The position numbers were made by a program, and so were the translations under genes. From Acidimicrobiales bacterium (lineage in GTDB: Bacteria > Actinomycetota > Acidimicrobiia > Acidimicrobiales > Bin134): 64,000 nt of DNA. The stretch covers positions 114,202 to 178,201 of the forward strand of contig OZ242356.1 of the NCBI GenBank assembly GCA_965208785.1, written 5' to 3'. The notes below the pieces were generated by a model that made no database searches, was not told where the DNA came from, and worked only from the letters and a program-made list of their open reading frames with translations. Numbering within the stretch: the first letter of the stretch is position 1; every line of letters starts with the position of its first letter. Below, piece by piece: positions 1,417 to 19,416 of the stretch.

Positions 1417-2419
1417 TGAGGACATGTTCTGGGCCGGGCGCTATCTGGAGCGGGCCGAGGACACCGCCCGGATGGTGCGGGCCACCCTGCTCAGCACCGT
1501 GGCCGAGAGCCCGGCCCAGGCCATCGACCGAATGCAGAACCTGATCCGCACCCTGCGGCTGAAAATGCCCACACCCTCCGAGGATGTGCAGACCATGGCC
1601 CAGAGCCTGGCGCCGTCACCGCCGATGCTGCGCAGCGAAGCCGGGCTGGGCATCGACGTGCAAGCCGCGGCCTCGGCCTTGGTGGCCTCGCCCACATTGG
1701 CCGGATCGGTGGTGTTCTGCATCGGCCGGGCCCGGGAGAACTTCCGCTCCTTGCGAGACCAGATCCCGTCGGAACTGTGGGAGCAGGTCAACCAGGCCCA
1801 CTTGCGGCTCCGACAGGAAGACTTCGCCGTCACGATGGAGCAAGACCCGTTCCAAACCCTCGACTTCATCCGGGTGAGCTGCCAGTCGCTCACGGGGGTT
1901 ATCAGCACCTCCATGTCCCAGGGGGAGGGCTACCGGTTTCTGGTGCTGGGCCAGACGCTGGAGCGGGCGTTGATGACCTGCCGGCTGATCAGCGTCCGCT
2001 ACCCCGAGCTCGACGGGTCGTCCTACGACGAGATGGCGCTCACTTTGCGGTCGGTCTCGGCGTTGGAGGCTTATCAGCGAGCTAGCCAGTCGTCGCCGGT
2101 GGGCTCGGACGTGGCCCGGTTCCTGCTGTTGGACGGCTCATTTCCCCGATCGGTGCTCTATTGCCTGCGAGCCAGCGAAGACCACGTCGAAGCGTTGGCC
2201 GCCAACGGTCGGCCCCCGCCTCTCCGACGTTTGGGCCAGCTCCGCTCCGAGCTGGAGTACGCTGACTTCGACACCATGGTGGCCGACCTGCCCCATCATC
2301 TGTCCACTCTGGAAGACGGGGTGCGGGATGTGGCCATTCTGGTGGGCAACCACTTCTTCCGCAACGCCGAGTCTTTCGATCTTCACAGCCAGGCCATCAT
2401 GCCGGGGGTGTCGTCGTGA
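1400..2419 (+). CDS. alpha-E domain-containing protein
   Basis: MLARHAEDMFWAGRYLERAEDTARMV matches the canonical alpha-E N-terminus. The ORF-track start at 1331 would add 23 aa made only of repeat sequence. Confidence 0.85.
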   Translation: MLARHAEDMFWAGRYLERAEDTARMVRATLLSTVAESPAQAIDRMQNLIRTLRLKMPTPSEDVQTMAQSLAPSPPMLRSEAGLGIDVQAAASALVASPTLAGSVVFCIGRARENFRSLRDQIPSELWEQVNQAHLRLRQEDFAVTMEQDPFQTLDFIRVSCQSLTGVISTSMSQGEGYRFLVLGQTLERALMTCRLISVRYPELDGSSYDEMALTLRSVSALEAYQRASQSSPVGSDVARFLLLDGSFPRSVLYCLRASEDHVEALAANGRPPPLRRLGQLRSELEYADFDTMVADLPHHLSTLEDGVRDVAILVGNHFFRNAESFDLHSQAIMPGVSS

Positions 2420-2474
2420 GCACCGCATCGACTGGCTCCCCGTATTGCCGAACGCTCAGCCCCGGAGCCCCGTC

Positions 2475-3419
2475 GTGAAACTCGACATCTGCTATCGCAC
2501 AAGGTTCGCGTTCGACGCCCCGGCGCGCGAGTCGCAGAACGAGATGCGGGCCTGCCCGGTCACCAACGAGCGCCAGCAGCTCCTGGGCTACCGGATCACG
2601 GTGGAGCCGTCGGCGAGAACGCTGTCGTTCACCGACTACTGGGGCACCCGGGTGGACCAGTTCGGGGTCACCGATGCCCACACCGCGCTCGAGGTCACCG
2701 CGGAGGCCTCGGTGGAGACCCAAGACCCGCTGCCGATGTCGTCCGAGGTGCCGTTGGATGCGCTGGACGCTCCTGGATTCCGCCATGGCCACAACGAATA
2801 TCTCATCCGTACCCGCCACACCGGCTGGGACGACGCCATGGCCCGAGAGGGCCGAAGGCTGATCCAGGCCGAATCCACCGTGGTGGGGGCGGCGACGAGC
2901 ATTCACCGGTATGTGGCCAACCGGCTGTCGTATCAGCCCGGCGCCACCGAGATCGGCGAGTCGATCACCGACATCGTTGCCAAAGGGGTGGGCGTCTGCC
3001 AGGACTACGCCCACCTGGCCGTGGCCCTGTGCCGAAGCGTCGGCATCCCGGCCCGCTATGTGTCGGGCTACCTGTTTTCCAGCGACGACCGCACCGGCAG
3101 CATCGACGGCGACCTGGTGAGGGTGCAGACCCACGCCTGGTTCGAGGCGGCCATTCCCGGCGCGGGCTGGCTGCCGCTCGACCCCACCAACCAACTGGCG
3201 GTGGGCCGCCAGCACGTCAAGATCGGCCACGGGCGAGACTACGACGACGTCCCGCCTCTGCGGGGGGTGTATTCCGGCCCGGGCCGCCCAGAAGTGGATG
3301 CGTCGGTGGAGATCCGCCGAATGGACCCCTCGCGCCAGCCCTCAACCCTCATGCGGCCCTCGCTGCTGGCCTCAGTCAAGGCCCCCCGCACCCGACAACA
3401 GCAGCAGCAACAGCAGTGA
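2475..3419 (+). CDS. transglutaminase-like family protein
   Basis: N-terminus VKLDICYRTRFAFD. Cys-His-Asp core present (GVCQDYAHL, THAWFE, LDPTN). GTG 2475 chosen by family N-terminus and is in frame with ORF 2328..3419. Ends in a run of 7 Gln. Confidence 0.85.
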   Translation: MKLDICYRTRFAFDAPARESQNEMRACPVTNERQQLLGYRITVEPSARTLSFTDYWGTRVDQFGVTDAHTALEVTAEASVETQDPLPMSSEVPLDALDAPGFRHGHNEYLIRTRHTGWDDAMAREGRRLIQAESTVVGAATSIHRYVANRLSYQPGATEIGESITDIVAKGVGVCQDYAHLAVALCRSVGIPARYVSGYLFSSDDRTGSIDGDLVRVQTHAWFEAAIPGAGWLPLDPTNQLAVGRQHVKIGHGRDYDDVPPLRGVYSGPGRPEVDASVEIRRMDPSRQPSTLMRPSLLASVKAPRTRQQQQQQQ

Positions 3420-3432
3420 GAACCGGGCCCCG

Positions 3433-4308
3433 CTAAATGCGGGCCTCGCGCACGTCGAGGCGGCGGAGCATCTCGTCGCCCACGAAGTTCAGCGCCATGA
3501 GGGTGACGAACATCACCCCGCCGGTGATAAGGGCGATGTGGGGGGCATCCTCCAGCCTTCCCTTGCCGGCCGACAAGATGTTGCCCCAGGTGATGCTGGG
3601 CGAGCCCACGCTCACCCCGATGAACGACAGGCTCCCCTCGGCGATGATCACGATTCCCATGGCCAAAAAGGCGATCGAGGCCAAGGCCGGCACCACATTG
3701 GGCAGCACTTCCCGGAACAGCAAGCGGGGCCATTTGGCCCCCATCATGTCGGCCACGGTCACGAACTCCCGAGCGGCGAACCGCAGTGCCTGGGCCCGGG
3801 CGATGCGGGCGATGGCCGGGATGGTCAAGATGGTCACCGCGATGGTCACGTTCAGGTAGCTCTGGCCCAGCATGGTCACGATGAACAGGGCGAACACCAG
3901 TGCGGGAAGGGCCAGCGCCACGTTCACCACGCTGCTGATTCCGAGGTCGATCCACTTGCCGAAGTAGCCGGCCACCACTCCCAGCACACCGCCCACCACG
4001 ATCCCGATGCCCACCGCCGGGCCGGCGATCGACAGCGACAGCCGTCCGCCCCACACCGAGCGGGCGAACATGTCGCGGCCAAGCTGATCGGTGCCGAACC
4101 AGTTCGACCATGACGGCCCCTCTTCTGGCGGCCCGGACAGCGGCTTGTGGGGGTCGTCCAAGAATCCCAGCCACGGGGCCAGCACGGCGCTGGCCACCAC
4201 CAGAATCAACCACCCCACCGACACCCACAGGGCGACGTTGTGGCGGCGTTGCCGGGGGGCGATGTCGGGCTGGGCGCCCGTAACGGCTGTGGTGGTGACA
4301 TCGGTCAT
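3433..4308 (-). CDS. ABC transporter permease, peptide/nickel (DppC/OppC-like)
   Basis: 291-aa multi-TM protein with family-typical sequence. ATGA overlap with the upstream permease. Confidence 0.9.
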   Translation of the reverse strand: MTDVTTTAVTGAQPDIAPRQRRHNVALWVSVGWLILVVASAVLAPWLGFLDDPHKPLSGPPEEGPSWSNWFGTDQLGRDMFARSVWGGRLSLSIAGPAVGIGIVVGGVLGVVAGYFGKWIDLGISSVVNVALALPALVFALFIVTMLGQSYLNVTIAVTILTIPAIARIARAQALRFAAREFVTVADMMGAKWPRLLFREVLPNVVPALASIAFLAMGIVIIAEGSLSFIGVSVGSPSITWGNILSAGKGRLEDAPHIALITGGVMFVTLMALNFVGDEMLRRLDVREARI

Positions 4309-5249
4309 TTTCGCCGCACCCGGGGGTCGAGCACCGAGTAGAGAAGGTCGACCATCGTGGTCACCGTCACAAAGACCGCGGCGATCAGCGCCACCAGGGT
4401 TTGCACCAGCAGGAACTCCCGGGCCGCCACCCAGCTCACCAGCAGCGAGCCCACGCCGTCGAGATCAAACAAGAACTCCACCACGATGGCGCCGTTCACC
4501 GCTTGGGCGGCCTGGATTCCGAAGATGGTCAGCAGCGTGAAGCTAGACGGGCGCAGCACATGGCGGATGAGCACATGGCGAACCGGCAGGCCTTTGGCCC
4601 GGGCAGTGCCCACAAAATCTTCCTGCAAGGTGCCGATCACGTCGGTGCGCAGCAGTCGCAGATAAACGGGCAGCAGACCGGCGGCCAGCGTTACCGAAGG
4701 AAGGAACATCACCTTGAAATGGGCTACCAGCCCTTCGGAGATCGGCTGGTAGCCGCTCAAGTCGAACCAGTCGAGCCTCACCGCGAACACCAAAATCAGC
4801 ACCAGCCCGAGCACGAACACCGGGATGGACAAGAGCGCGAACGCCCCTCCGCTGGCGATCTTGTCGCTCACGCTGTTCTGCTTGTATCCCGACCACAGCC
4901 CAAGGGGAATGGCCGCGCCCAAAGCCAGGAACTGGGAGTAGACCAAAAGGAGCAGGGTTCGGGGCAGTGCGGTGTTTAGGGCCTCGCCGAACGAGCGCCC
5001 GGTGAGGTACGACTTGCCGAAGTCGCCGGTGAGCACGTCGCCGCCCCACTTGGCCCACTGCACGATGACCGGGTCGCCGAGGTTGCGGTCCCGCTCGCAT
5101 TCGGCAATCTGCTCCTCGGTGGCCGCCCCGCCGAACGCGGCCACGCACGGGTTGCCGGGGAGCAGGTTCAGCATCCAGTAGAACAGCAGCGTTACGGCCA
5201 GCACCACCAGGGCAAGCTGGGCCAAGCGCGTTCCGAAGAACCGGAGCAC
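4305..5249 (-). CDS. ABC transporter permease, peptide/nickel (DppB/OppB-like)
   Basis: 314-aa protein starting MLRFFGTRLAQLALVVL, typical of DppB/OppB family. Confidence 0.9.
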   Translation of the reverse strand: MLRFFGTRLAQLALVVLAVTLLFYWMLNLLPGNPCVAAFGGAATEEQIAECERDRNLGDPVIVQWAKWGGDVLTGDFGKSYLTGRSFGEALNTALPRTLLLLVYSQFLALGAAIPLGLWSGYKQNSVSDKIASGGAFALLSIPVFVLGLVLILVFAVRLDWFDLSGYQPISEGLVAHFKVMFLPSVTLAAGLLPVYLRLLRTDVIGTLQEDFVGTARAKGLPVRHVLIRHVLRPSSFTLLTIFGIQAAQAVNGAIVVEFLFDLDGVGSLLVSWVAAREFLLVQTLVALIAAVFVTVTTMVDLLYSVLDPRVRRK

Positions 5250-5301
5250 TGGCCTCTCCTGCCCCTGGCCTTTTGGCGCCCCTCTTCGCCGAGGCCGGCC
5301 G

Positions 5302-7110
5302 CTACTGCTCGATCCAGGTCTCGGTCAAGAACACCCTGCCGCTGAACACCCTCTCGTGCCGCGCTCCGTCGGCAAGAGTGAGGTTGTCAACCCCATGCAC
5401 ATGGTCGTGGGTGGCAAAAAGCCAGTTGGAGTTGTAGAACCAGATGTAGTGGGCGCTCTCGCCGAACGCCCGGTTGATGTCCTCGGCCAGCTCTCTTTGC
5501 CGATCGGGGTCTGTGGTGGTCAGAACTTCGTCGAGTGCGGCGTCAATCGCCGGGTTGTTGATGCGGCCGAAGTTCAGTGCGATTCCCCGGCCGAACTTGC
5601 TGTGCCACCAAACCCGCTCGGCGGCCACGCCGAAGCCCTCGTGCTGGCGCCACAGGAAAGCGGTGAAGTTGCCGAACACCGCGTTGGTGATCAACTCGGC
5701 CTGGTCTACCTGGGTGATGTTCACGTCGAGCCCGCATTCACCCCACATGGTGGCAATCAACTCGGTGCTGAGGAGGTTGGCCGGGTCGTTGGTGGTGCCC
5801 AAATCCACGTTGGTTACGCCCAAGCGGGCAATGGTGGCGCGACCGGCGCCGGGGTCGTAAGCCGGGAATCCGGTGTCGTCCAGATAACCGGGCGTGCCGG
5901 GCGAGAACGGGCCATCGTCCGGAGCCTGTCCATCCCAGCGAAGGGTGCTGTAGGTCTGTCGGTCGGTGCATTGGGCCAGCGCCCGGCGGAACTCCACGTT
6001 GTCGAACGGGGGTCGGGAGTTGTTCAACAACAGGTAGGTGGTTTCAGCGTAGCGATCTTCCTGCCAGAAGGTCTTGAACTCCTCGTTGTAGTCGTCGACT
6101 CTGAGCCCTTCGTTCACACTGCTGGCATCGAGGTCGCCCGACCGAAGCGCGGCATACCGGGCATCGGTATCGGGGATGGGCCGGAAATCAATGCCATCGA
6201 GGTAGGGAAGCTGGCGTCCTTCGGCGTCGGTGCGCCAGTAGTTGGGGTTGCGCACCATCCGGGTTACCTCGTTGTCAATCCACTCGTCCAGCATGAACGG
6301 GCCGGTGCCAATGGGGTTGCGTGCCGCGCCCTCGGCGCCCAAGTCGTGCATCGACGGTGCCCCGAAATAGCCGATATGACTAGTCAAGAGACTGGGCAAG
6401 GCGGCATACGGTCTTCCGAACACCATCTTTATGGACACATCGTCCAAAACCTCGATTGCCTGGAGCTCCCAGTCGCTGACAAAGATGCCGGTGAGAGTGC
6501 CTTTGGCCTGCTCCTCGAAGTGCCGCTTCAGCGCGGCTGCGTCGGCTGGCGACCCGTCGTGGAACTGGAGTCCTGGACGCAGGGTCAGAGTCCACTCGGT
6601 GAAGTCGTCGTTGGAGGTGAAGCTCTCCAGCAGGTTGGGGACTATCCGGCCGTCGTCACCCTCAACGGTCAGGGTGTCGTACAGGGCGCGGAACAGGATG
6701 TGGCCCGACACCGCAGCCTGGGCATTCACCGGGTTCAGGCCGTTGGTGGTCTCGGCTTCCAGCCCCACCACCAGGGTGCCCCCGTACTGGGGCTCCGGCG
6801 CGGCGGGTGGCGCCTCGGTGGCCACCGTCTCGGGCGCCGAGGCGTCCTCTGAAGTGCCCTCGCCTTGCTCGCCGCTACCATCGGTGCTGGGTTGGGCCTC
6901 GCCGTCGCCGTCGCCGCTGGGGGCAGAAGCATCATCTCCGCCCCCCCCCGAGGGCGCCTCGGGTGCGGCGGTCGCCTCAGCCGCCAAACCGCTGCCCCCG
7001 TCATCGTCGTCGTTGTTGCCTCCGCAGGCCGATGCCACCAGCACCAGCGCGCACAGCAGAGCCAGCCACCGCCGCCGAGCTAGCTTCGAGGCCCGACAAG
7101 AATCAGCCAT
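5302..7110 (-). CDS. ABC transporter substrate-binding lipoprotein, family 5 (peptide/nickel)
   Basis: Signal peptide plus lipobox LVASAC, then a long acidic Gly/Asp/Glu/Pro linker, then an SBP-5 body. Confidence 0.9.
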   Translation of the reverse strand: MADSCRASKLARRRWLALLCALVLVASACGGNNDDDDGGSGLAAEATAAPEAPSGGGGDDASAPSGDGDGEAQPSTDGSGEQGEGTSEDASAPETVATEAPPAAPEPQYGGTLVVGLEAETTNGLNPVNAQAAVSGHILFRALYDTLTVEGDDGRIVPNLLESFTSNDDFTEWTLTLRPGLQFHDGSPADAAALKRHFEEQAKGTLTGIFVSDWELQAIEVLDDVSIKMVFGRPYAALPSLLTSHIGYFGAPSMHDLGAEGAARNPIGTGPFMLDEWIDNEVTRMVRNPNYWRTDAEGRQLPYLDGIDFRPIPDTDARYAALRSGDLDASSVNEGLRVDDYNEEFKTFWQEDRYAETTYLLLNNSRPPFDNVEFRRALAQCTDRQTYSTLRWDGQAPDDGPFSPGTPGYLDDTGFPAYDPGAGRATIARLGVTNVDLGTTNDPANLLSTELIATMWGECGLDVNITQVDQAELITNAVFGNFTAFLWRQHEGFGVAAERVWWHSKFGRGIALNFGRINNPAIDAALDEVLTTTDPDRQRELAEDINRAFGESAHYIWFYNSNWLFATHDHVHGVDNLTLADGARHERVFSGRVFLTETWIEQ

Positions 7111-7327: not shown

Positions 7328-8320
7328 TCAGAAGCGCAGTTCAGGCAACAGATAGGTGTTTCTTATCCGCTCCCCAAACTCAGGACTAGACAATGCGTCA
7401 GGCCCGTCAGGCACGACGACGCCCCGGCGGGCGCAGTCCTCGGCCATCGTGGCGATCAGGGTGGGCTCGTCGAGATCGTCCAAATGCTGGTCGTAAACCT
7501 CAGCCTCTCCTGCATCGTCAAACACGAAGGCCTTCCAGGAAAGCGACACCCGCACCTCGTCGAAACCATGGCGCACCGGTTCGCGGCCGGGCTCCTCGAT
7601 GATCCACTGGCGATCGGGGGTCAGCGTGATGGCGGCTTCAAAGCCGTACTTGGCGTAGTCGGCCTCGGCGCCGATCGACTCCACCCGGTGGGGCATGTGG
7701 TCGTTGTCGCCCATCACGCCGTAGTTGTAGGGCGGCTTCACCGTCACCATGTCGCCGTCCCACCCCTCGGGCCAGTAGGTGAACTCCCCTCCCGCGCCCA
7801 GGTAGTACCAGCACACCGCGGTGGCGATCCGCACCCGCCAGCGGTCGAAACACCCAGAGTGCATCATGCAGTTGAGCAGCCAGGTGGGGTATTCGTCCCG
7901 GCCCACCCCCCGAAAGGAGGGTATGTCGGTGTGGCGGGCGTACTGGCCGCTGGGGGCGTTGATGTTCACATAGGTGAAATAGGGCCGCACCACCTCGGCG
8001 CCGTAGAGCTGGCGGGCGGCCTCGATGAACCGGGGGTTGTTGACGATGGTGTCGGCCCCCTCCACGGCCTGTTCCTCGGCCCCCCACGTCGTGCGGTAGA
8101 CCGGCGGCACCCGGGGCTCGCCGTCGACCACGTCGACGAACGACGGCACGTCGCCGGTGCGGGCCCCGGCTCGCAGCGCGGCCCGGCTCTCCATGAACTC
8201 TGCGCCGGCCAGCGTCAGCGGATGGGGCGACTGGCGCTGCAAGATGCCCAGCAGCACATCGGGATCCTCCAGGGCCTGTTGCATGATGACCGGCGGTCGG
8301 GGCAGCGTCGTGGTGCGCAT
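7328..8320 (-). CDS. hypothetical protein, possible cupin / Fe(II)-2OG-oxygenase-like
   Basis: Protein-like 330-aa ORF with an H-x-D (ARHTDIPSF) and a later His (DHMPHRVE). Start ATG 8320 preferred over 8416. No family recognised. Confidence 0.6.
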   Translation of the reverse strand: MRTTTLPRPPVIMQQALEDPDVLLGILQRQSPHPLTLAGAEFMESRAALRAGARTGDVPSFVDVVDGEPRVPPVYRTTWGAEEQAVEGADTIVNNPRFIEAARQLYGAEVVRPYFTYVNINAPSGQYARHTDIPSFRGVGRDEYPTWLLNCMMHSGCFDRWRVRIATAVCWYYLGAGGEFTYWPEGWDGDMVTVKPPYNYGVMGDNDHMPHRVESIGAEADYAKYGFEAAITLTPDRQWIIEEPGREPVRHGFDEVRVSLSWKAFVFDDAGEAEVYDQHLDDLDEPTLIATMAEDCARRGVVVPDGPDALSSPEFGERIRNTYLLPELRF

Positions 8321-8399
8321 CGCCACACAATACGGCACAAGATAGGGTGGATCGGAAGGGCTCGCCCGAGTCGCCCGGAGTCTTCCGCGAGGAGCTTCC

Positions 8400-8939
8400 A
8401 TGGAAACCACCACCATCTTGTTGCCTACTGGCGAGGTGAACGAGCCCGCTCAGCCGCTGGCCATTCGCAAGGACTCGCTGGCCGGCGCGACGGTGGGCAT
8501 CATCGACAATGACATGTGGCGATCGATGGCGATCATGGCCGACGAGCTGTCCCGCCAGTTGGTGGACCGGGCCGGGGCGGCCGGGGTGGTCGTTAGGGCC
8601 AGCGGTCCGATGCACGGCGCCGATCCCGAGCAGTATCAGCAGGAGATGAAGGCATTCCACGCCGAAGCCGACGCGGTGATCAGCGGTTTGGGCAATTGAG
8701 GCTCATGCACGGCGTGGTGTATCCACGCCAGCAGCACGCTGGAAGCCATGGGAACCCCGGCGGTTGGCCTGGTGACCGAGCAGTTCCGGGGCTTGGCCGA
8801 GGCCACCGCCCGGGGCCTGCGGGTGGACAATCAGCCATTGATCGTGTTGCCGTCGGGCTACGACGAGTGGTCTGAGGATGACATCAGGGCCGACATCGCC
8901 TCCCGCCTCGACGACATCGTGGACGCTTTGGTGGCATGA
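8400..8939 (+). CDS. UGSC-motif selenoprotein (TGA 8697-8699 read as selenocysteine)
   Basis: ORFs 8400..8699 and 8748..8939 are in one frame. Read-through gives ...ISGLGN-U-GSCTAWCIHASS.... GAGGAG ribosome-binding site before ATG 8400. Hairpin just downstream of the TGA. Confidence 0.8.
8706..8733 (+). promoter_or_regulatory. SECIS-like hairpin
   Basis: 7-bp perfect stem GGCGTGG (8711-8717) / CCACGCC (8723-8729) with loop UGUAU. A further 3 bp pair at 8706-8708 / 8731-8733. The loop lies about 22 nt from the UGA. Confidence 0.6.
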
Positions 8940-8979
8940 CCCCGCGGGTGGCCATTGCGGGCAGCCGGACAAGGATGAG

Positions 8980-10035
8980 ATGACTCAGCGGGTTGACGTC
9001 GACGGCGGAGTCGACGAGGTAGAGGCCTATCTGCGAGAGCGGGGCATGACCGACGGCTTGCCGATCGTGCCCCCCACCCCCGAGCGGGTGGCCGCCGCGG
9101 TGGCCGCCTCCGGGCTGTCGGCCGACCAGGTGGTGAGCGATGTCCCCCCGCTGAATGCCCCGGCCACCGTGGAGAAGATCGCAGTCAATGCGGTGATGGC
9201 CGGGTGCTCACCCGACGTGATGCCGGTGCTCATCGCCGCCATCGACGCCTTCTGCGACCCCCAGATGAACGCCCACGGCGTTCAGACCACCACCAACCCG
9301 GTGGGGCCGATGCTGGTGGTGAACGGCCCGATCCGCAACCGGCTGGGCTTCAACTACGGGGCGGGGTGCTTCGGGCCGGGATCGCACGCAAACGCCACTG
9401 TGGGGCGGGCTCTTCGACTGGCCCTGGTGAACATCGGCGGGGCCATCCCCGGAGATGTGGACAAGGCGCCGCTGGGCTGGCCGGGCAAGGCCACCTCGCT
9501 GTGCGTGGCCGAGAACGAGGAGGCCTCCCCGTGGCCGCCCTACCACACCGAGGCCGGGTTCGACGCCGACGATGATGTGGTGACGGTGCTGGCCGTGAAC
9601 GGGATGTGGCCCATCACCGACATGCACCACGAGGCCGACCAGGTGCTGCACCACGTGGCTCGGGGGCTGGCCATCAGCGGGCCGTGCGGGGGCCACGACG
9701 CCCCCAACCCCTTTCCGACCGTGCTGGTGATGAGCCCGGTGATCGCCGAGATGGTGGCCGGCGTGCTGCCCACCAAGCAGGAACTGCGGGAGCATCTCTT
9801 CGCCGAAGCCCGGGTGCCGCTCGACTTTTACCCCCCGTACCGGCACCAGCCCACCCGAGACGTGCTCGAAGGGCTCGGCGTGGCCATTGAGAACGACCGG
9901 GTGCCCATCGTGCTCTCCCCCGACCACTTCGTGATCCTGGTGGCCGGGGGCGCGGGCGGGCTTCAGTCGGCAGGGCTGTCGTGCATGCTGGGCATGCCCG
10001 CGAGCCGGGCTGTCGCGACCGGCTCGGCGGCTTAG
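8980..10035 (+). CDS. conserved hypothetical protein (selenoprotein operon partner)
   Basis: Begins MTQRVDVDGGVDEVEAYLRERGMTDGLPIVPPTPERV. ATG 8980 is in frame with ORF 8878..10035 and lies 40 nt after the selenoprotein stop. Family not recognised. Confidence 0.75.
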   Translation: MTQRVDVDGGVDEVEAYLRERGMTDGLPIVPPTPERVAAAVAASGLSADQVVSDVPPLNAPATVEKIAVNAVMAGCSPDVMPVLIAAIDAFCDPQMNAHGVQTTTNPVGPMLVVNGPIRNRLGFNYGAGCFGPGSHANATVGRALRLALVNIGGAIPGDVDKAPLGWPGKATSLCVAENEEASPWPPYHTEAGFDADDDVVTVLAVNGMWPITDMHHEADQVLHHVARGLAISGPCGGHDAPNPFPTVLVMSPVIAEMVAGVLPTKQELREHLFAEARVPLDFYPPYRHQPTRDVLEGLGVAIENDRVPIVLSPDHFVILVAGGAGGLQSAGLSCMLGMPASRAVATGSAA

Positions 10036-10045
10036 CTGAAAGGAG

Positions 10046-10318
10046 CTAGTGGGCCTCGAGGCCGAGTTGCTCGAATATCTCGGCCCGGCGCTCCTCGTAG
10101 GTCTCCTCGTCCATTCCCCCAGACTGGTACTTCTCGCTCAGCAGGCGGAAATCCTCGTAAAGCTCGGCTTCTGACTTTCCGTTTGAGGAAGGCACCTCTA
10201 CTTCTTCCTCGAAGGGAACCTCAAGCTTGCCGTGACGGCGGGCCTGCTTGGCCGCAGCCCGCTCGCGCTTGTTCTTCTCCCGCTGTCGCTTCTGAAAGCT
10301 CTCTGATCCTCGACCCAT
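10046..10318 (-). CDS. small hypothetical protein (basic N-terminus, acidic SHOCT-like C-terminus)
   Basis: 90-aa ORF: KRQREKNKRERAAAKQARR, then ...LLSEKYQSGGMDEETYEERRAEIFEQLGL. Confidence 0.55.
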   Translation of the reverse strand: MGRGSESFQKRQREKNKRERAAAKQARRHGKLEVPFEEEVEVPSSNGKSEAELYEDFRLLSEKYQSGGMDEETYEERRAEIFEQLGLEAH

Positions 10319-10908: not shown

Positions 10909-11859
10909 TCAGTCCGAGTAGTTGACTCCCGGCAGCACGCACAGCATTTCGAACAGCAGGTTGGCGGCGCCAACGGCGGTGGCGCCGGTGGGGTCGTAGA
11001 TGGGGGCTACCTCCACCAGGTCGCAGCCGACCAGGTCGAGGCCCCGGCAGCCTCGGATGATCTCGAGGGCCTGGGGCGCGGTGAGGCCGGCGATCTCGGG
11101 GGTGCCGGTGCCGGGGGCGAACGCCGGGTCGAGGGCGTCGATGTCGAAGCTCATGTACACCGGTCCGCCGCCCACCTTCTCGCGCACCTCGGCCATGAGC
11201 GGTTCCAGCGAGCGGTTCCAGCACTCCTCCACCTGCACCACCCGGAAGCCCTGCTCGCGCGACCAGTCGAAGTCGTCGGCGGCATAGCCGGTGCCCCGCA
11301 CGCCGATCTGGGCCACCCGGTGGGTGTCGAGCAGCCCCTCTTCCACGGCTCGGCGAAACGGGGTGCCGTGGGCGATGGCCTCGCCGAACATGTGCTCGTT
11401 GATGTCGGTGTGGGCGTCCACGTGGACAACCCCCAGCGGCCCGTGCTTGCGCCGCATGGCCCGCATGATGGGCAGGGCGATGGTGTGATCGCCCCCCATC
11501 GTCACCGCGATCACGTCGTGGCCGAGGAGCTCGTCGTAGAAGGCCTCGATGCGGGCCACCGCGTCGGCCAGGTTGTAGGGGTTGGTGGCCACGTCGCCGA
11601 TGTCGTCGATGCGAAGGCTGTCGAACGGCGCCGCTCTCGTGGCCATGTTGTAGGGACGGATCAGCACCGACTCGTTGCGGATGCCCCTCGGGCCGAAGCG
11701 GGCCCCCGGCCGGTTGGACGTGCCGATGTCGATCGGCACGCCCACGACGGCGACATCGAGATCGGCCGCCGCCGACCGGCCGGGAAGCCGCATGAAGGTG
11801 GCGATGCCCGCGAAGCGGGGCATCTGATTGCCCCCGAGGGGTTGAGGCATGTCTGCCAC
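10909..11859 (-). CDS. speB: agmatinase (arginase/ureohydrolase family)
   Basis: Motifs GGDHT, VHVDAHTD and SFDIDALDP. Confidence 0.9.
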   Translation of the reverse strand: MADMPQPLGGNQMPRFAGIATFMRLPGRSAAADLDVAVVGVPIDIGTSNRPGARFGPRGIRNESVLIRPYNMATRAAPFDSLRIDDIGDVATNPYNLADAVARIEAFYDELLGHDVIAVTMGGDHTIALPIMRAMRRKHGPLGVVHVDAHTDINEHMFGEAIAHGTPFRRAVEEGLLDTHRVAQIGVRGTGYAADDFDWSREQGFRVVQVEECWNRSLEPLMAEVREKVGGGPVYMSFDIDALDPAFAPGTGTPEIAGLTAPQALEIIRGCRGLDLVGCDLVEVAPIYDPTGATAVGAANLLFEMLCVLPGVNYSD

Positions 11860-11893
11860 CTCAGTTCCTCCGTTCCCCAGCGGACCGGAGCGC

Positions 11894-12997
11894 TTACCCC
11901 TTGGCCTCGATGAAGGCGTCGGAGAACTTCACCTCGAAGTCGCCGGTGTCCTGGATCTCCTCCAAGATCTCCACCGGGGCCACGCCAGGCGTGCTGAGGA
12001 AGTCTTGGAGGTCTTCATCGAGCCCGCCGAATGCGGCCGCGTTCGGGGTGGAGTAGTAGTTCCAGTTCGACAGAGCGGCGCCCTGCTCGGCGGTGAGCAG
12101 CCAGTTGATGAACGTGTGGGCCGTACACGGGCTGCCGGCGTCGAAGGGGATCGCCATGTTGTCGATCCAGCGGGTGCCGCCCTCGTCGGGCACGAAGTAC
12201 TCGTAGCGCGACGGGTCGTCGGTCTCCAGGAACTGGGTGAACATATCGCCCGAATAGCCGTGGGCGATCACCGTCTCGCCGGTGGTGAGGAACTCGTCGG
12301 CCGAGTCGGTGTTGAACGCCGCCAGACGGCCTCGGGCGCTGGCCACCAGATCGGTGGCCTCTTGAAGCTCGCCCTCGTCGGTGGAGTTCAGCGAGTAGCC
12401 CAGATACTTCAGCGCTGCGCCGATCGTCTCCCGAGGATCGTTGAGCAGCGAGATCGAGCCGCTGTGCTCGTCGGCGATGGCCGGATCGAAGATCAAACCC
12501 CAAGAACGGGGGAAGTCGGCGCCCAGCGCGGCGGTGTCCACCGCGATGCCGGTGGTGCCCCACTGGTAGGGAACCGAGTAGTCGCCCGCCGGGTCGTAGA
12601 TCAGGTTCCGGAAATCGCCGGAGATGTTGGCGATGTTGGGGATGGCGTCCTTGTTGAGCGGCTGTACGGTCTCGCCGGCGATGAGGATGGCCACCATGTA
12701 GTCCGACGGCACGATCAGGTCGTAGCCCGAATTGCCGGCGGCCACAATGGGCTGCATGGCCTCGTTGGAGTCGTAGACGTCCATGGTGACGCTCACACCG
12801 AACTGCTCTGAGAACGAAGTGAGCTGCTCCTCGTCGATGTACTCGGCCCAGTTGTAGATGTTGAGGTTGCCATCGGTCTCGTTCACCTCGCAGTCGGCGA
12901 TTGCACCTCCATCGCCGTCATCGTCGCCGCATGCTGCGGCTACCAGCGCAAAGGCCAGCAGCACTCCGAGCAGCCCGAACAGTCTTTTCTGTTTCAT
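11894..12997 (-). CDS. potD: spermidine/putrescine ABC transporter substrate-binding lipoprotein
   Basis: Begins MKQKRLFGLLGVLLAFALVAAACG (lipobox), followed by a PotD/PotF-like body. ATG 12997 follows an AGAGGGGA ribosome-binding site. The long upstream ORF extension is spurious. Confidence 0.9.
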   Translation of the reverse strand: MKQKRLFGLLGVLLAFALVAAACGDDDGDGGAIADCEVNETDGNLNIYNWAEYIDEEQLTSFSEQFGVSVTMDVYDSNEAMQPIVAAGNSGYDLIVPSDYMVAILIAGETVQPLNKDAIPNIANISGDFRNLIYDPAGDYSVPYQWGTTGIAVDTAALGADFPRSWGLIFDPAIADEHSGSISLLNDPRETIGAALKYLGYSLNSTDEGELQEATDLVASARGRLAAFNTDSADEFLTTGETVIAHGYSGDMFTQFLETDDPSRYEYFVPDEGGTRWIDNMAIPFDAGSPCTAHTFINWLLTAEQGAALSNWNYYSTPNAAAFGGLDEDLQDFLSTPGVAPVEILEEIQDTGDFEVKFSDAFIEAKG

Positions 12998-13908
12998 TGG
13001 TTTATCCCCTCTTTGGGTTGGGTATTGGTATTGGGTTTGGCGGACATTGCTTGCCGGGCGGCGCGCAGCGATGGGCGCCCGCCCCGGCCGCTGAACTGCT
13101 GGAAGGCCAGCGACAAGGCCACCAGGAAGACCGATGCGGCCAGCATGAGCACCGAGGTGGCGTTTATCAGGGGGGTGACGCCCCGGCGGATGAGGCCGAA
13201 CACGAACACCGGCAGGGTGGTGGCGCCCGGTCCGGCGGCGAACTGGGTGATGACCACATCGTCGAGCGACAGGGTGAGGGCCAAAAGGGCGCCGCCGGCC
13301 ACGCCGGGCACGATCTGGGGGAAGGTCACATAGCGGAACGTCTTCCACCGGGATGCGTAGAGGTCGAGGGCGGCCTCCTCCAGCACCTCGCTCATCCCCG
13401 CCAGTCGGGCCCGCACCACCACCGACACGAAGCTGATGTTGAAGGCGATGTGGCTGATGGCGATGGACCCCAGTCCCTTTTGGACATCCCAGCCGAACAC
13501 CGAGTCGAGAATTTCGAAGAACTCGGCGAAGAACAGCAGCATCATCACCGCCATGGTCACGTCGGGGATGATGATGGGGAGATAGAGCAGGGCGTCGAAC
13601 ACCTTGCGGCCCTTGAACTTGAAGCGCTCCAGGGCCAGGGCCGCCAGCGTGCCCAGCACCACGGAGATGACGGTGGACAGCAGGGCCACCCGTACCGACA
13701 CCCACACCGCGCCCTGAAGCTGGCTGTGCTCGACGAAATCCTGGTACCACTCCAACGTGAAACCGCCCCACCGGCCCACGTTGCGGTCGTCGCTGAAGGA
13801 GAACACGATCAGCACGAAGATGGGGGCGAAGAAGAACAGGTAGACCAGCCAGGAGTGGGCCGTGAGCGCGATCTTGGTGGTGCCCCGGGGCTGGACGGTG
13901 CTGCTCAC
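12994..13908 (-). CDS. potC: spermidine/putrescine ABC transporter permease
   Basis: PotC-like TM protein. GTG 13908 overlaps the potB stop (GTGA). Its stop overlaps the potD ATG (ATGA). Confidence 0.85.
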   Translation of the reverse strand: MSSTVQPRGTTKIALTAHSWLVYLFFFAPIFVLIVFSFSDDRNVGRWGGFTLEWYQDFVEHSQLQGAVWVSVRVALLSTVISVVLGTLAALALERFKFKGRKVFDALLYLPIIIPDVTMAVMMLLFFAEFFEILDSVFGWDVQKGLGSIAISHIAFNISFVSVVVRARLAGMSEVLEEAALDLYASRWKTFRYVTFPQIVPGVAGGALLALTLSLDDVVITQFAAGPGATTLPVFVFGLIRRGVTPLINATSVLMLAASVFLVALSLAFQQFSGRGGRPSLRAARQAMSAKPNTNTQPKEGINQ

Positions 13909-14816
13909 AGGTTCCGGCCCCCGGTTCGGAAGTACACCAGGGTGGCCACCAGCATCACCGTCATCAGCACGAACGACAGCGACGCCCCTACCGGCCAATT
14001 CCTCGCCGTCAGGAACTGGGTGACGATGTAGGAGCCCAGTAGGGTGGTCTTGGCCCCGCCCAGGATCTCCGGTGTCACATAGGCGCCCAGGCTGGGAACG
14101 AACACCAGGATCGACCCGGCGATCACTCCCGGCATCGACAGCGGGAGCAGAACCCGCCGAAACGTCTGGAATCCCGACGCGTACAGGTCGCGGCTGGCCT
14201 CGACCAGGCTGAGGTCGATCCGCTCGATCGACGCGTACAGGGGCAGCACCATGAACGGCAGGAATCCGTACACCAGCCCGATCACCACCGCCGAGGTGGT
14301 GAACAGCAGCTCCCGCTCTCCCAGGCCGAGGGCCTCGGAGATGTTGGTGAAGAGCCCGTCGTTGCCCAGCAGCACCCGCCACGCGTAGTTGCGGACCAGG
14401 AAGTTGGTCCAGAACGGGATCATCACGAACACCAGCATGAGGTTGCGGACCAGGGGGGTGCGGGTGGCTATGAAGTAGGCGAACGGATAGGCCACCACCA
14501 AGCAGATCAGCGTGGTGAGGACGGCCAGCCACAGCGACCGGAACAGGATGTCGCGCACGATGGGCTCGCCCAGCTTGCGGTAGGCGTCGAGGTTCCAGCC
14601 CGAGAGGTCGGTGCCGCCGAAGCGGTTCCGAGTGGCGAACGAATAGATCATCACGATCCCCAGCGGGACGGCGAAGAACAGCACCAGGTAGGCGTAGGCC
14701 GGGAGCGACAGCAGGAACCCCCGCCGGGAGGCAGCCCGCTCGGCCGCCTTCTCGAACTCGGGAGTGGCCACGGCCGCCTCCTCGATCCGTTCGGGCCGGT
14801 CGGCCACCACGGTCAT
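13905..14816 (-). CDS. potB: spermidine/putrescine ABC transporter permease
   Basis: PotB-like TM protein. ATG 14816 overlaps the potA stop (ATGA). Confidence 0.85.
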   Translation of the reverse strand: MTVVADRPERIEEAAVATPEFEKAAERAASRRGFLLSLPAYAYLVLFFAVPLGIVMIYSFATRNRFGGTDLSGWNLDAYRKLGEPIVRDILFRSLWLAVLTTLICLVVAYPFAYFIATRTPLVRNLMLVFVMIPFWTNFLVRNYAWRVLLGNDGLFTNISEALGLGERELLFTTSAVVIGLVYGFLPFMVLPLYASIERIDLSLVEASRDLYASGFQTFRRVLLPLSMPGVIAGSILVFVPSLGAYVTPEILGGAKTTLLGSYIVTQFLTARNWPVGASLSFVLMTVMLVATLVYFRTGGRNL

Positions 14817-15907
14817 GCCCGCACCACCGAGACCGCGTCGAGCGTCCACGACACCGCCACCTCTTCGCCTGCGTAGGGGCGGTAGCCGCCGGGCTGGTTC
14901 TCGCGGCGGACTTCAAGGCGCACCCAGTCGAGCACCACCGTGTACACCAGCGCGTTGCCCAGATAGGTCACGCCCTCCAAGCGGCCGACCACCGATTGGT
15001 GATCAGCGGGCACTTCGTCGGGCGGGTGCATCCCGGCCCGCTCCGGTCGCAGGCACACCGCCACCCTGGTGCCCACGGGAAGATCCGAATGGCCGGGAAT
15101 GTGGACCCCGTTGGCCAGACACACCGTGCCGTTCGACACCACCGAGGCATCGAGCAGGTTGGTTTGGCCGATGAAGTTGGCCACGAATCGGTTCACCGGG
15201 TGCTCGTAGATCTCCGCCGGAGTGCCCACCTGGAGAAGCTCGCCCTCGTTCATCACCCCGATCCGGTCGGCCATGGTGAGGGCTTCTTCTTGGTCGTGGG
15301 TGACGAACACGAAGGTGATGCCCACCTCGCGCTGAAGGGCCTTCAGCTCGCCCTGCATCTCTTGGCGCAGCTTGAGGTCGAGGGCGCCCAGCGGCTCGTC
15401 GAGCAGCAGCACCTTGGGCCGGTTGACCAGCGCACGGGCCAGCGCCACCCGCTGGCGCTGGCCCCCCGAAAGCTGTTGAGAGCGGCGCTGCTCCAAGCCC
15501 TCGAGTCGAACCAGGCTGATGGCCTCCAGCACCCGGCCGGCGATCTCATCCTTGGAAACTCGCTGCATCTTGAGCCCGAAGGCCACATTGGCCTCCACCG
15601 TCATGTGGGGGAACAGGGCGTAGTCCTGGAAAACGGTGTTGACCGGGCGCTTGTTGGGAGGCAGCGTGCCGGCCTCGTTGCCGAAGATCTTGAGGCTGCC
15701 CTCGGTGGGGAACTCCAGCCCGGCGATCATGCGCAAGGTGGTGGTCTTGCCGCAACCCGACGGCCCCAGCAGGGCGAAGAACTCGCCGTCGGCGATCTCC
15801 AGGTCTACGTTGTCCACCGCCACCACCGAGCCGAAGCGCTTGGTGATGGCCGAGAGCTCCACTGCGGCGGTCTGGTCGCTCACCGGATCATCCTCCCCGT
15901 CGCCCAT
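14813..15907 (-). CDS. potA: spermidine/putrescine ABC transporter ATP-binding protein
   Basis: Walker A GPSGCGKTT, signature LSGGQRQR, and a C-terminal TOBE-like region. Confidence 0.9.
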   Translation of the reverse strand: MGDGEDDPVSDQTAAVELSAITKRFGSVVAVDNVDLEIADGEFFALLGPSGCGKTTTLRMIAGLEFPTEGSLKIFGNEAGTLPPNKRPVNTVFQDYALFPHMTVEANVAFGLKMQRVSKDEIAGRVLEAISLVRLEGLEQRRSQQLSGGQRQRVALARALVNRPKVLLLDEPLGALDLKLRQEMQGELKALQREVGITFVFVTHDQEEALTMADRIGVMNEGELLQVGTPAEIYEHPVNRFVANFIGQTNLLDASVVSNGTVCLANGVHIPGHSDLPVGTRVAVCLRPERAGMHPPDEVPADHQSVVGRLEGVTYLGNALVYTVVLDWVRLEVRRENQPGGYRPYAGEEVAVSWTLDAVSVVRA

Positions 15908-16365
15908 CAGCCTGTGCCCCAGCTATAGGTCTGCTTGACGAGGCGCAGGTAGTTCAGCGTCTCCAAGGCAACCACTCCGGGGATGGCCCGGATGCGGCCG
16001 TTGACCACCGACATGAAAGCGTCGCTGTCGGGGCACACGATCTCGGCGATGATGTCGAACCGCCCGGCCACGATGATCACGTACTCGGCCTCATCGATCT
16101 CGCCGATGGCGTCGGCCACGCTCCGGGCGTCTTCCGACACGGTGACCCCCACCAGGGCCTGGTAGCCCAAGCCCAGCGCCACCGGATCGGTAACCGCCAC
16201 CACCTGGATGACCCCCCGCTCGATCAGCCGGTTGACCCGCTGGCGGGTGGCCGCCTGCGACAGCCCGACCAGCGGCGCGATCTGGGCGTGGGGCAGCCGG
16301 CCGTCCACTTGCAGCTCGCGGATGATGGCCTTGTCGGTCTCATCGAGGTCGAACACCGCGGTCAT
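15907..16365 (-). CDS. Lrp/AsnC family transcriptional regulator
   Basis: 152 aa with an HTH (DKAIIRELQVDGRLPHAQIAPLVGLSQAATRQRV) and a RAM-like domain. TGATG overlap with potA. Confidence 0.9.
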   Translation of the reverse strand: MTAVFDLDETDKAIIRELQVDGRLPHAQIAPLVGLSQAATRQRVNRLIERGVIQVVAVTDPVALGLGYQALVGVTVSEDARSVADAIGEIDEAEYVIIVAGRFDIIAEIVCPDSDAFMSVVNGRIRAIPGVVALETLNYLRLVKQTYSWGTG

Positions 16366-16380
16366 CGGTCCACCTGCCTC

Positions 16381-17739
16381 CTAGAACCGGGCCTGGGCCT
16401 CGGTCAGGGCGGTGCGAAGGATCTGGTTGATGCGGTCGAACTCGTCGGGACCGGCGATCAGGGGCGGCGAGAGCTGGATAACGGGCTCGCCCCGGTCGTC
16501 GGCTCGGCAGATCAGCCCCAGATCGAGGAGGCGGTTGGTGAGAAACCCCCGCAGCAGTGATTCGGCTTCCTCCTCGGTGAACGATTCTTTGGTGTCCCGA
16601 TCCTTCACCAGCTCGATCCCGTAGAAGTAGCCCATGCCCCGGACCTCCCCGACAATCGGGAGGTCGCACAGGTCGTCCAACGCGGCCCGAAAGGCGGCCT
16701 CGTTGGCCATCACATGGTCGAGAAGGTGCTCTTTCTCGAACACGTCGAGGTTGGCCATGGCCACCGCACAGCTCACCGGGTGACCGGCAAAGGTGAACCC
16801 GTGCAAAAACGACTCGTCAGTGCCCACGAACGGCTCGGCCAACCGGTCGCTGGCGATCATCGCCCCCATAGGGGCGTAACCCGACGTCAGCCCCTTGGCG
16901 CAGGTGATGATGTCGGGCACGTATTCGAGCCGCTCGGAGCCGAACATGGCGCCCAGGCGACCGAAGGCGCAGATAACCTCGTCGGACACCAGCAGTATGC
17001 CGTGGCGATCGCAGATCTCGCGCACCCGGGCGAAGTAGCCGTCGGGCGGCACAAAGCACCCGCCGGCGTTTTGCACCGGCTCCAAGAACACCGCGGCCAC
17101 CGTTTCAGGGCCGGCCCGCAGCACCGCCTGCTCGATGTCATCAGCACAGCCCAGCGTGCAGGCATCGCAGCCAGCGCACAGCCCGCAGCGGTACCTGTTG
17201 GTGTTGGCGGCATGGGAGACGCCGGGCACGAGCGGCTCGAAGGGGTCGCGCAGCGCCTTCAGCCCGGTGATCGACAGCGCTCCCATCGAAGTGCCGTGGT
17301 AGGAGAGGTCGCGGCTGACCACCTTGTTCCGCTGGGGCTGGCCGACCACCTTGAAGTACTGGCGGGCCAGCTTCCACGCCGACTCCACCGATTCCGAACC
17401 CCCGCTGGTGAAGAACACCCGGTTGAGGTCGCCGGGGGCGAACGCGGCCAGACGAGCGGCCAACTCCACCGCGCCGGGATGGGCATAGGTCCAGATCGGG
17501 AAGTAGCCGAGCTGCGATGCCTGACGCCCCGCGGCCTCGGCCAGCTCGTTGCGGCCGTGACCCACTTGGGAGACGAACAGGCCGGCCAGGCCGTCGAGGT
17601 ACTGCTTTCCGTTGGCGTCCCACACGTAGCAGCCGTCGCCTCGCTCCATGATGCGCATGCGGTCGACCGCGCTGCCGATGCTGCTGAAATGACCCCACAA
17701 ATGGCGGTCGGCCAGCGCAACCATCTCCTCGTGCTGCAT
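16381..17739 (-). CDS. class-III (omega) aminotransferase, putrescine/beta-alanine-pyruvate type
   Basis: DEVICAFGRLG motif with family-wide similarity. Start at MQHEEM (17739); the ORF allows 17772. Confidence 0.85.
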   Translation of the reverse strand: MQHEEMVALADRHLWGHFSSIGSAVDRMRIMERGDGCYVWDANGKQYLDGLAGLFVSQVGHGRNELAEAAGRQASQLGYFPIWTYAHPGAVELAARLAAFAPGDLNRVFFTSGGSESVESAWKLARQYFKVVGQPQRNKVVSRDLSYHGTSMGALSITGLKALRDPFEPLVPGVSHAANTNRYRCGLCAGCDACTLGCADDIEQAVLRAGPETVAAVFLEPVQNAGGCFVPPDGYFARVREICDRHGILLVSDEVICAFGRLGAMFGSERLEYVPDIITCAKGLTSGYAPMGAMIASDRLAEPFVGTDESFLHGFTFAGHPVSCAVAMANLDVFEKEHLLDHVMANEAAFRAALDDLCDLPIVGEVRGMGYFYGIELVKDRDTKESFTEEEAESLLRGFLTNRLLDLGLICRADDRGEPVIQLSPPLIAGPDEFDRINQILRTALTEAQARF

Positions 17740-17770
17740 CGAGGGCGCCCCCCTGCTTCGATTAGCGATC

Positions 17771-17840
17771 ACCGATTTAACACCACAAACCGGCCTTGTG
17801 CAACCAAATCGGTTGTCTCAGATAACTCGACAACCGGTTT
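17771..17840. promoter_or_regulatory. cluster of dyad symmetries in the divergent transaminase/ALDH control region
   Basis: ACCGATTT 17771-78 / AAATCGGT 17806-13. AAACCGG 17787-93 / CCGGTTT 17834-40. CACAA-N7-TTGTG 17784-17800. CAACC-N5-GGTTG 17801-17815. Confidence 0.35.
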
Positions 17841-17921
17841 TTGCTCGAACAGGGGCTTGATTGTGCGGGTTTGGTGCTGCAATATGAGCAATGCAACAAC
17901 GAGAGCGGGGGTAGCACGACC

Positions 17922-19343: not shown

Positions 19344-19384
19344 GCTCAACGAACTGGTCACCGCAAGATGGTGAAGCACTGAGC
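19329..19384 (+). repeat. 17-nt direct repeat spanning the ALDH stop codon (39-bp period)
   Basis: ATGGTGAAGCACTGAGC at 19329-19345 and again at 19368-19384. Confidence 0.95.
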
Positions 19385-19416
19385 GGCCAAGTCTGGGCAC
19401 CGGTGGGGTTCGACTC

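Follow-up and report, generated by a model that had tools for sequence, protein, structure and literature searches.

The orphan selenoprotein UGSC is paired with a larger, unannotated protein across many bacterial phyla

UGSC-containing proteins (PF24696, NF041046) are among the most abundant selenoproteins of aquatic metagenomes, where selenocysteine (Sec) forms far outnumber cysteine (Cys) forms, with 255 and 21 entries, respectively, in GOS Table 2 of the 2008 survey by Zhang and Gladyshev (PMC2398784). The parts of that survey dealing with the family propose a thioredoxin fold for UGSC and mention its fusion to an unnamed domain, 'Unknown_1' (PMC2398784). No function is assigned to UGSC in the searched literature that mentions it. 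Described systems of comparable design include D-proline reductase and glycine reductase protein B (PrdA/PrdB and GrdE/GrdB), as well as the two-subunit class I (Fe-S) fumarate hydratases and L-tartrate dehydratases, in which a 4Fe-4S cluster is bound by three Cys. Here, we analyzed a UGSC gene and its surroundings in a 64,000-nucleotide stretch of contig OZ242356.1 from an Acidimicrobiales bacterium (hereafter, the window). UGSC and the product of the next gene, which we call protein B, constitute a widespread, previously undescribed pairing, and a long-standing orphan selenoprotein family thereby becomes experimentally approachable. The pair comprises the following features:

8400..8939, plus strand: UGSC-family selenoprotein, 179 aa including Sec100, with the motif G-N-U-G-S-C-T
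8697..8699, plus strand: in-frame UGA read as selenocysteine, with homology running on to both sides of the codon
8711..8729, plus strand: candidate bacterial selenocysteine insertion sequence (SECIS) hairpin, GGCGUGG-UGUAU-CCACGCC, starting 14 nt past the UGA
8980..10035, plus strand: protein B, 351 aa, the UGSC partner, from a large family without annotation

The UGSC open reading frame (ORF) reads through the in-frame TGA at 8697-8699, and its conceptual translation yields ...GLGN-U-GSCTAWC..., with the motif GLGN-U-GSCT at residues 96-104. The product matches Pfam PF24696 in one stretch that spans the UGA (E 5e-34; score 118.3 bits, cut-off 25; positions 2-171 of the 172 in the profile) and scores 83.9 bits against NCBIfam NF041046, under the equivalog cut-off of 125. 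Judged by this homology, the gene at 8400..8939 encodes a real UGSC-family selenoprotein. In an alignment of 121 sequences, position 100 is U or C in all but two members and C103 is present in 117, and most UGSC matches in genome-derived loci have exactly one in-frame TGA, placed at the Sec motif. Cys takes the place of Sec in the UGSC of Natrialba and in the fusion proteins P0233, P0239, and P0247. Pfam searches at E values up to 10 returned no thioredoxin-type match for 24 UGSC sequences, and no second family recurred consistently when 30 B sequences were included. Neither Sec machinery genes nor a tRNA-Sec were found within the 64-kb window; the rest of the genome lay outside this search.

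For the window sequence alone, RNA folding gives the hairpin at 8711-8729 a z-score of -1.3, which is non-significant in such GC-rich DNA (the genome is 65-69% GC). Across 190 unique UGSC genes (L001-L202), between 73% and 99% of sequences can form each of its seven pairs, with covariation at the apical one, which is G-C in 131 genes and C-G in 52. The 63 nt past the UGA also fold better than control segments from the same genes (p about 3e-8). The apical switch accompanies a change from Trp..Ile to Cys..Val, two residues apart, in the encoded protein (GSCT-x-W/C-x-I/V-H); as read from these alignments, the SECIS-like hairpin constrains the UGSC protein sequence after Sec. No Rfam model matched the hairpin region. 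The element looks like a selenocysteine insertion signal. Given the conservation of U/C100 and C103, the large excess of Sec over Cys forms, and this covarying hairpin, selenocysteine looks essential to UGSC.

A scan of species-representative genomes, one per species, detected at least 597 B loci. Their bacterial hosts include Acidimicrobiia, Dehalococcoidia and other Chloroflexota, Beta-, Alpha-, Gamma-, and Deltaproteobacteria, Methylomirabilota/Rokubacteria, Binatia, Acidobacteriota, Poribacteria, Actinomycetes, and one Bacillaceae isolate; the haloarchaeon Natrialba carries B as well. Among 82 B loci compared, a same-strand UGSC gene lies directly up- or downstream of B in 72, and several loci contain two or three UGSC-B pairs in tandem. 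At least one of the ten UGSC-less loci ends at B, and others among them resemble true orphans with unrelated neighbors. Two UGSC-less loci from Rokubacteria (L019, 3818-5608; L030, 3838-7038) have, upstream of B, a protein of roughly 600 aa without a Pfam match, possibly fused to B in L030, which could be an alternative partner.

The association is equally evident when UGSC is the starting point. We assembled a reverse sample of 120 metagenome contigs, for which the sole selection criterion was a DNA pattern matching the Sec motif; this pattern covers only the GG-[D/N]-U-G-S-C-T...H subtypes. UGSC is encoded on all 120. A same-strand adjacent B accompanies 92 of the 124 UGSC genes in this sample, the contig end is reached in 28, and for the other four B lies on the opposite strand or at a distance of 1-3 kb. 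Moreover, the two domains are fused in frame, with no stop between them, in 41 of about 171 adjacent pairs, and both domain orders occur. Database proteins include full UGSC::B fusions of the Cys type (P0233, P0239, and P0247) and B::UGSC proteins that gene calling has truncated at the Sec codon (P0220 and P0231); for some UGSC::B proteins, the called product starts just past this codon, and P0053 in locus L081 further confirms the fusion. 'Unknown_1' of the 2008 survey may correspond to B.

UGSC and B have also diversified together: a mirror-tree comparison of 120 pairs gave r = 0.82 (permutation maximum 0.09), and gene order is clade-specific in 110 of these pairs. Based on adjacency from both search directions, fusions in both orders, and shared diversification, UGSC and B are a real and very strongly conserved functional unit across many bacterial phyla and one archaeon. 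The accessible portions of the UGSC literature name no partner besides the 'Unknown_1' fusion, and they do not describe near-obligate pairing with B, two fusion orders, or co-diversification.

Public gene calls split or truncate UGSC-B genes at the UGA (e.g., L081 4647-4931 and 5001-6245; L207 4497-4934). The results include 'UGSC' fragments of 94 and 145 aa and B proteins that bear 60-100 extra N-terminal residues, which correspond to the C-terminal half of UGSC. Recognition of the pair helps to correct such calls, and it offers a clear-cut basis for the annotation of thousands of 'hypothetical' genes.

The B start codon, an ATG, is at 8980, 40 nt past the UGSC stop, and the protein contains MTDGLPIVPPTPERV, AVNAVMAGCSP, and FGPGSHANATVGRALRLALVNIGG. 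A word-indexed search found more than 5,596 homologues, and an exhaustive profile search delineated 7,660 clusters at 50% identity, 5,103 of them at E <= 1e-10. No Pfam or NCBIfam model matches B, and searches of PDB sequences with B as a single sequence or as a profile gave nothing. Strictly invariant among 121 sequences are D25, G26, A68, G75, G116, G142, R143, E178, and G323. Only two Cys, C76 and C175, are conserved; a first alignment had suggested that both are invariant, and in the larger set each is missing in about 7-8% of members, independently of the other; the two are dispensable in about 13%. In 8 of the 121 members, Ala or Val stands in place of C76, which lies between two helices in the structural model. 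An Fe-S cluster or a fixed disulfide relay through C76 and C175 is disfavored, since each is lost in 7-8% of members while U-x-x-C is kept. Separately, two database proteins, P0207 and P0212 (717 and 713 aa), are tandem B-B fusions with two diverged B domains and no UGSC domain in the polypeptide.

Structure prediction from a 30-sequence alignment gave a confident model of B, with a predicted local distance difference test score (pLDDT) of 89.5 and a predicted template modeling score (pTM) of 0.90. The top Foldseek match in the PDB is the class I fumarate hydratase 5l2r (E 3.7e-4, probability 0.82, 374 aligned columns); it is weak structurally, with a template modeling score (TM-score) of 0.24 and a root-mean-square deviation (rmsd) of 19 Å. 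The next matches, also weak, are Toblerone-fold cyclic amide hydrolases. According to this model, B has a fold without a close solved relative.

We consider it probable that UGSC and B are two subunits of one enzyme, and we favor a Sec-dependent oxidoreductase that would be recycled by general thiol systems. UGSC would be the small subunit, with the catalytic Sec in a U-G-S-C motif that appears, from the alignment rather than a model, to sit at a beta-strand/helix junction, and with Cys103 placed to resolve a selenenyl-sulfide. B, as the large subunit, would most likely provide the substrate pocket, with D25, R143, and E178 as well as conserved Asn, Thr, Arg, and Lys residues. In the proposed cycle, the selenolate would attack the substrate held by B, Cys103 would form the Se-S bond, and a general cellular thiol system, thioredoxin or similar, would re-reduce it. 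The conserved U-x-x-C motif and the near-absence of Sec replacement suggest selenolate chemistry that a thiol does poorly, with Cys103 resolving the Se-S bond. A physical complex of the two subunits is suggested by the fusions. Redox chemistry, which the preliminary description of this DNA had proposed in the form of a redox or reductase system, is suggested by the U-x-x-C motif; no reductase partner is conserved nearby.

Small organic acids or amino-acid derivatives that the cell imports are the probable substrates, and paralogous pairs would act on different ones. When all ORFs of the 82 loci were clustered, no third universally conserved gene, such as one for a reductase or thioredoxin, emerged, and no ORF family occurs at more than 17 loci. 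The commonest, yet variable, neighbors are TctC, SBP_bac_5, TRAP, and ABC binding proteins, CoA-transferase III, luciferase-like monooxygenases, MmgE/PrpD, enoyl-CoA hydratase, MaoC, and SDR proteins. One setting is that of a cultured bacterium, Robertmurraya sp. 2P01SA, whose UGSC-B fusion gene lies inside a same-strand gene run encoding a PrpR-type sigma-54 activator, enoyl-CoA hydratase, MmgE/PrpD, a TRAP transporter, an Ldh_2 dehydrogenase, a thioesterase, and a MaoC hydratase. This neighbor context, the several paralogous pairs per genome, and the invariant Asp, Arg, and Glu of B together point to UGSC-B as an enzyme that breaks down organic acids or amino-acid derivatives after their import.

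Several observations weigh against an oxidoreductase of this kind. The proposed substrate class is drawn from variable neighbors in genomes that are rich in those families anyway, and physical contact between UGSC and B is deduced solely from the fusions. At the 82 loci, neither a reductase nor a thioredoxin nor any other electron donor is conserved beside UGSC-B, and a non-redox activity (isomerase or lyase) fits this about as well as a redox one. The independent loss of C76 and C175 makes a fixed Cys relay inside B unlikely. Furthermore, about 12% of B genes are without an adjacent UGSC, and P0221 (563 aa) is a fusion whose UGSC domain has neither Sec nor Cys; some B proteins can thus work without the selenol. 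UGSC-like domains fused or adjacent to B that are devoid of both Sec and the resolving Cys were also observed at L047 (9420-11051) and L011 (3077-1473), e.g., with GFGWSGVYT in place of the motif. Together with P0221, they imply that some family members must work without a selenol.

The alternative that survives best is a non-redox enzyme, which could be a hydro-lyase, an isomerase, or a racemase. It would follow the two-subunit plan of class I fumarate/tartrate hydratases, in which a small second subunit accompanies a large catalytic one, and Sec would serve as a nucleophile, a base, or a metal or cluster ligand. We regard this reading as unlikely, and the missing reductase partner makes it a serious alternative all the same. 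Class I hydratases, which are also the best PDB matches of B, are mirrored in the size split (351 and about 170 aa), in the gene order, which varies, and in how often the two parts are fused; one UGSC sequence has a faint Fumerase_C match (E 0.09), and the MmgE/PrpD, enoyl-CoA hydratase, and MaoC neighbors act on unsaturated or hydroxy acids. The structural superposition is poor, however, and hhalign comparisons of B and UGSC with Escherichia coli FumA, TtdA, and TtdB gave probabilities of only 0.1-0.7%. B has just two conserved Cys as opposed to the three-Cys cluster site of the hydratases, and the U-x-x-C spacing of UGSC is typical of redox pairs. With an hhalign probability below 1% and no consistent Pfam match, the identity as a class I fumarate hydratase suggested by Foldseek was set aside and is retained only as a weak rival.

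Somewhat less probable still is that UGSC-B is a distant functional analogue of PrdA/PrdB and GrdE/GrdB, in which a U-x-x-C Sec subunit and a larger substrate-binding subunit would carry out reductive bond cleavage next to a carboxylate. The shared logic of a U-x-x-C Sec subunit with an adjoining larger partner speaks for this possibility, as do the transporters for amino-acid-like or carboxylate solutes near UGSC-B and a Sec:Cys ratio that, in the GOS table, is at least as extreme for UGSC as for PrdB (PMC2398784). Yet with E values up to 10 in Pfam, none of 24 UGSC sequences matched GRDB (PF07355) and none of 30 B sequences matched Gly_reductase (PF09338). There is no sign of a self-cleavage or pyruvoyl site in B, where C76 lies between two modeled helices and is replaceable, and genes for PrdC, GrdA, GrdC, or thioredoxin reductase are not conserved near UGSC-B.

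On its other side, the UGSC gene is flanked by a divergent gene for a protein that we call A. The remaining features of the locus are as follows:

7328..8320, minus strand: protein A, 330 aa, 2-oxoglutarate/Fe(II) oxygenase fold, a local neighbor
8321..8399, no strand: divergent spacer between A and UGSC, 79 bp
3433..7110, minus strand: ABC transporter with SBP_bac_5 binding protein (5302..7110) and permeases (4305..5249 and 3433..4308), assigned by Pfam
10046..10318, minus strand: small Lys/Glu/Arg-rich protein, 90 aa, convergent with B, containing MGRGSESFQKRQREKNKRERAAAKQARRH

The mechanical minus-strand ORF of A extends over 7328..8416 (362 aa). Because all homologues begin at the Met at 8320, A is 330 aa long and the spacer 79 bp, in which a consensus scan found no promoter-like site. 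The preliminary description had grouped A, UGSC, and B as one set. The three genes, their coordinates, the 40-nt gap, the 79-bp spacer, and the motifs quoted for B and A (for the latter, ARHTDIPSF and DHMPHRVE) are all present as it described. It had also noted that the H-x-D...H arrangement of A is reminiscent of cupin/Fe(II) oxygenases, and this observation is borne out. H130, D132, H211, and R257 are invariant in 29 sequences with identities down to 27%; R257 belongs to the motif VRVSLSWK, in which S259 is nearly invariant (R-x-S), and by its position this R-x-S would bind the C5 carboxylate of 2-oxoglutarate (2OG). The sequence of A has no Pfam or NCBIfam family at E <= 0.01 and no match among PDB sequences, either singly or as a profile. 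Its model (pLDDT 92) gave 254 PDB matches at E <= 0.001 in Foldseek, and the 50 matches listed are all 2OG oxygenases, including 6n1f, the Pseudomonas putida prolyl-4-hydroxylase (P4H), and PHD2 (E 1e-8, probability 1.0, TM-score up to 0.64 relative to the target). The model thus places A in the double-stranded beta-helix fold of 2-oxoglutarate/Fe(II) oxygenases, of the prolyl-4-hydroxylase/PHD type. Of the structure predictions that had been suggested as a check, the one for A led to a fold, and the one for B to a confident model with weak PDB matches.

Gene-neighborhood conservation, the other suggested check, separates A from the pair. B is kept with UGSC, as detailed above; A was found by tblastn at one of the 82 B loci and is absent from the other 81. 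A stands beside UGSC-B only in two close relatives, L001 (UGSC 96% identical) and L207 (A 79% identical). Around four A homologues of lower identity (35-47%), neither UGSC nor B is present within 5 kb. In the window and in L207, A points the same way as the SBP_bac_5 ABC transporter genes downstream of it, and L207 keeps the order A, binding protein, permease. A probably belongs with this peptide/opine-type transporter and would be co-transcribed with it, and it more plausibly acts on the substrate of the transporter. In terms of its distribution, A is a lineage-specific neighbor of UGSC-B in a sponge-symbiont lineage and not part of the unit; the closest homologues of A and B carry database names of sponge-associated Acidimicrobiia, 'Candidatus Poriferisocius'. 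We therefore rejected A as a conserved partner, and of the proposed three-gene set, UGSC-B stands and A falls outside.

A three-component redox system, in which A would oxidize a substrate and UGSC-B would act on the product or recycle A, is accordingly very improbable: the divergent arrangement over the spacer is kept in L001 and L207, and Fe/2OG oxygenases unrelated to A are present near UGSC-B at other loci (5 with the TauD family, one with PhyH), but A itself is nearly absent from B loci, runs with the transporter genes rather than with UGSC-B, and belongs to a small family (86 homologues) when B has thousands of members. As a general system this model is largely refuted; locally, in this lineage, the three proteins could cooperate.

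At L204, a distant A homologue follows a PEP-mutase/NTP-transferase protein, a B12-binding radical SAM enzyme, and a glycosyltransferase, which looks like phosphonate or glycan modification. The 90-aa charged protein at 10046..10318 matches no Pfam or NCBIfam family; L207 has a 90-aa gene in the equivalent place convergent with B. At 10909-17772 on the minus strand lies a polyamine-type utilization block encoding agmatinase, a PotD/F-like binding protein, permease(s), a TOBE-domain ABC ATPase, and a class III aminotransferase. This block is not kept beside UGSC-B in L207, where an insertion sequence (IS) element and a luciferase-like fragment are found instead. Elsewhere in the window, a circularly permuted ATP-grasp gene (PF14403/PF04174) adjoins an Alpha-E (PF04168) gene at 29-2419 on the plus strand. 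Two long minus-strand ORFs, at 17769-19400 (543 aa) and 2397-3230 (277 aa), have no Pfam match at E <= 1e-4; they could be either additional genes that lack annotation or spurious ORFs of GC-rich DNA.

With B as its partner, an orphan selenoprotein becomes a testable enzyme of two defined components, and attention is drawn to a family that has thousands of members and lacks both annotation and a close solved structure. For the natural Cys versions (P0233, P0239, P0247, and the Natrialba asiatica pair), expression in E. coli should require no selenocysteine machinery. A cultured host is available in Robertmurraya sp. 2P01SA, with its fusion in a sigma-54-regulated organic-acid operon. Tentatively, and with less confidence than for the two-subunit arrangement itself, we suggest that UGSC-B may be a widespread, unrecognized two-subunit selenoenzyme with a large-subunit fold lacking a close solved relative and a reaction type new to selenoproteins. 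If so, the reaction could be, e.g., a Sec-dependent reduction, isomerization, or bond cleavage by which imported organic acids are catabolized, and the many paralogous pairs per genome would represent a substrate-diversified enzyme family.

Compared with known systems, the selenoprotein of the window is closest to the UGSC family as characterized in the available text of the 2008 survey (PF24696, NF041046; 'UGSC-containing protein'; PMC2398784): it matches the Pfam profile end to end and has the U-G-S-C motif and the downstream hairpin, and it differs in its score below the NCBIfam equivalog cut-off. Protein A shares the H-x-D...H metal triad, the R-x-S motif, and the fold with prolyl-4-hydroxylase/PHD-type oxygenases, and differs from them in having no Pfam match and, within its 330 aa, about 100 additional residues on either side. 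Class I fumarate hydratases and L-tartrate dehydratases resemble UGSC-B in having a large and a small subunit with a variable fusion state, in providing the best, though weak, structural match of B, and in acting on dicarboxylates, a trait that UGSC-B would share; they differ in the three-Cys cluster site, absent from B, and in the low TM-score (0.24) and hhalign probability (<1%). The hosts of UGSC-B, which we take to be mostly aerobic or facultative heterotrophs, are unlike the Stickland fermenters that carry PrdA/PrdB and GrdE/GrdB. Neither UGSC nor B is similar in sequence to these reductases, and no PrdC, GrdA, or GrdC genes are associated with the pair. The resemblance is one of logic only: a two-subunit design in which the gene for a U-x-x-C Sec subunit stands beside that of a larger partner and the Sec is rarely replaced.

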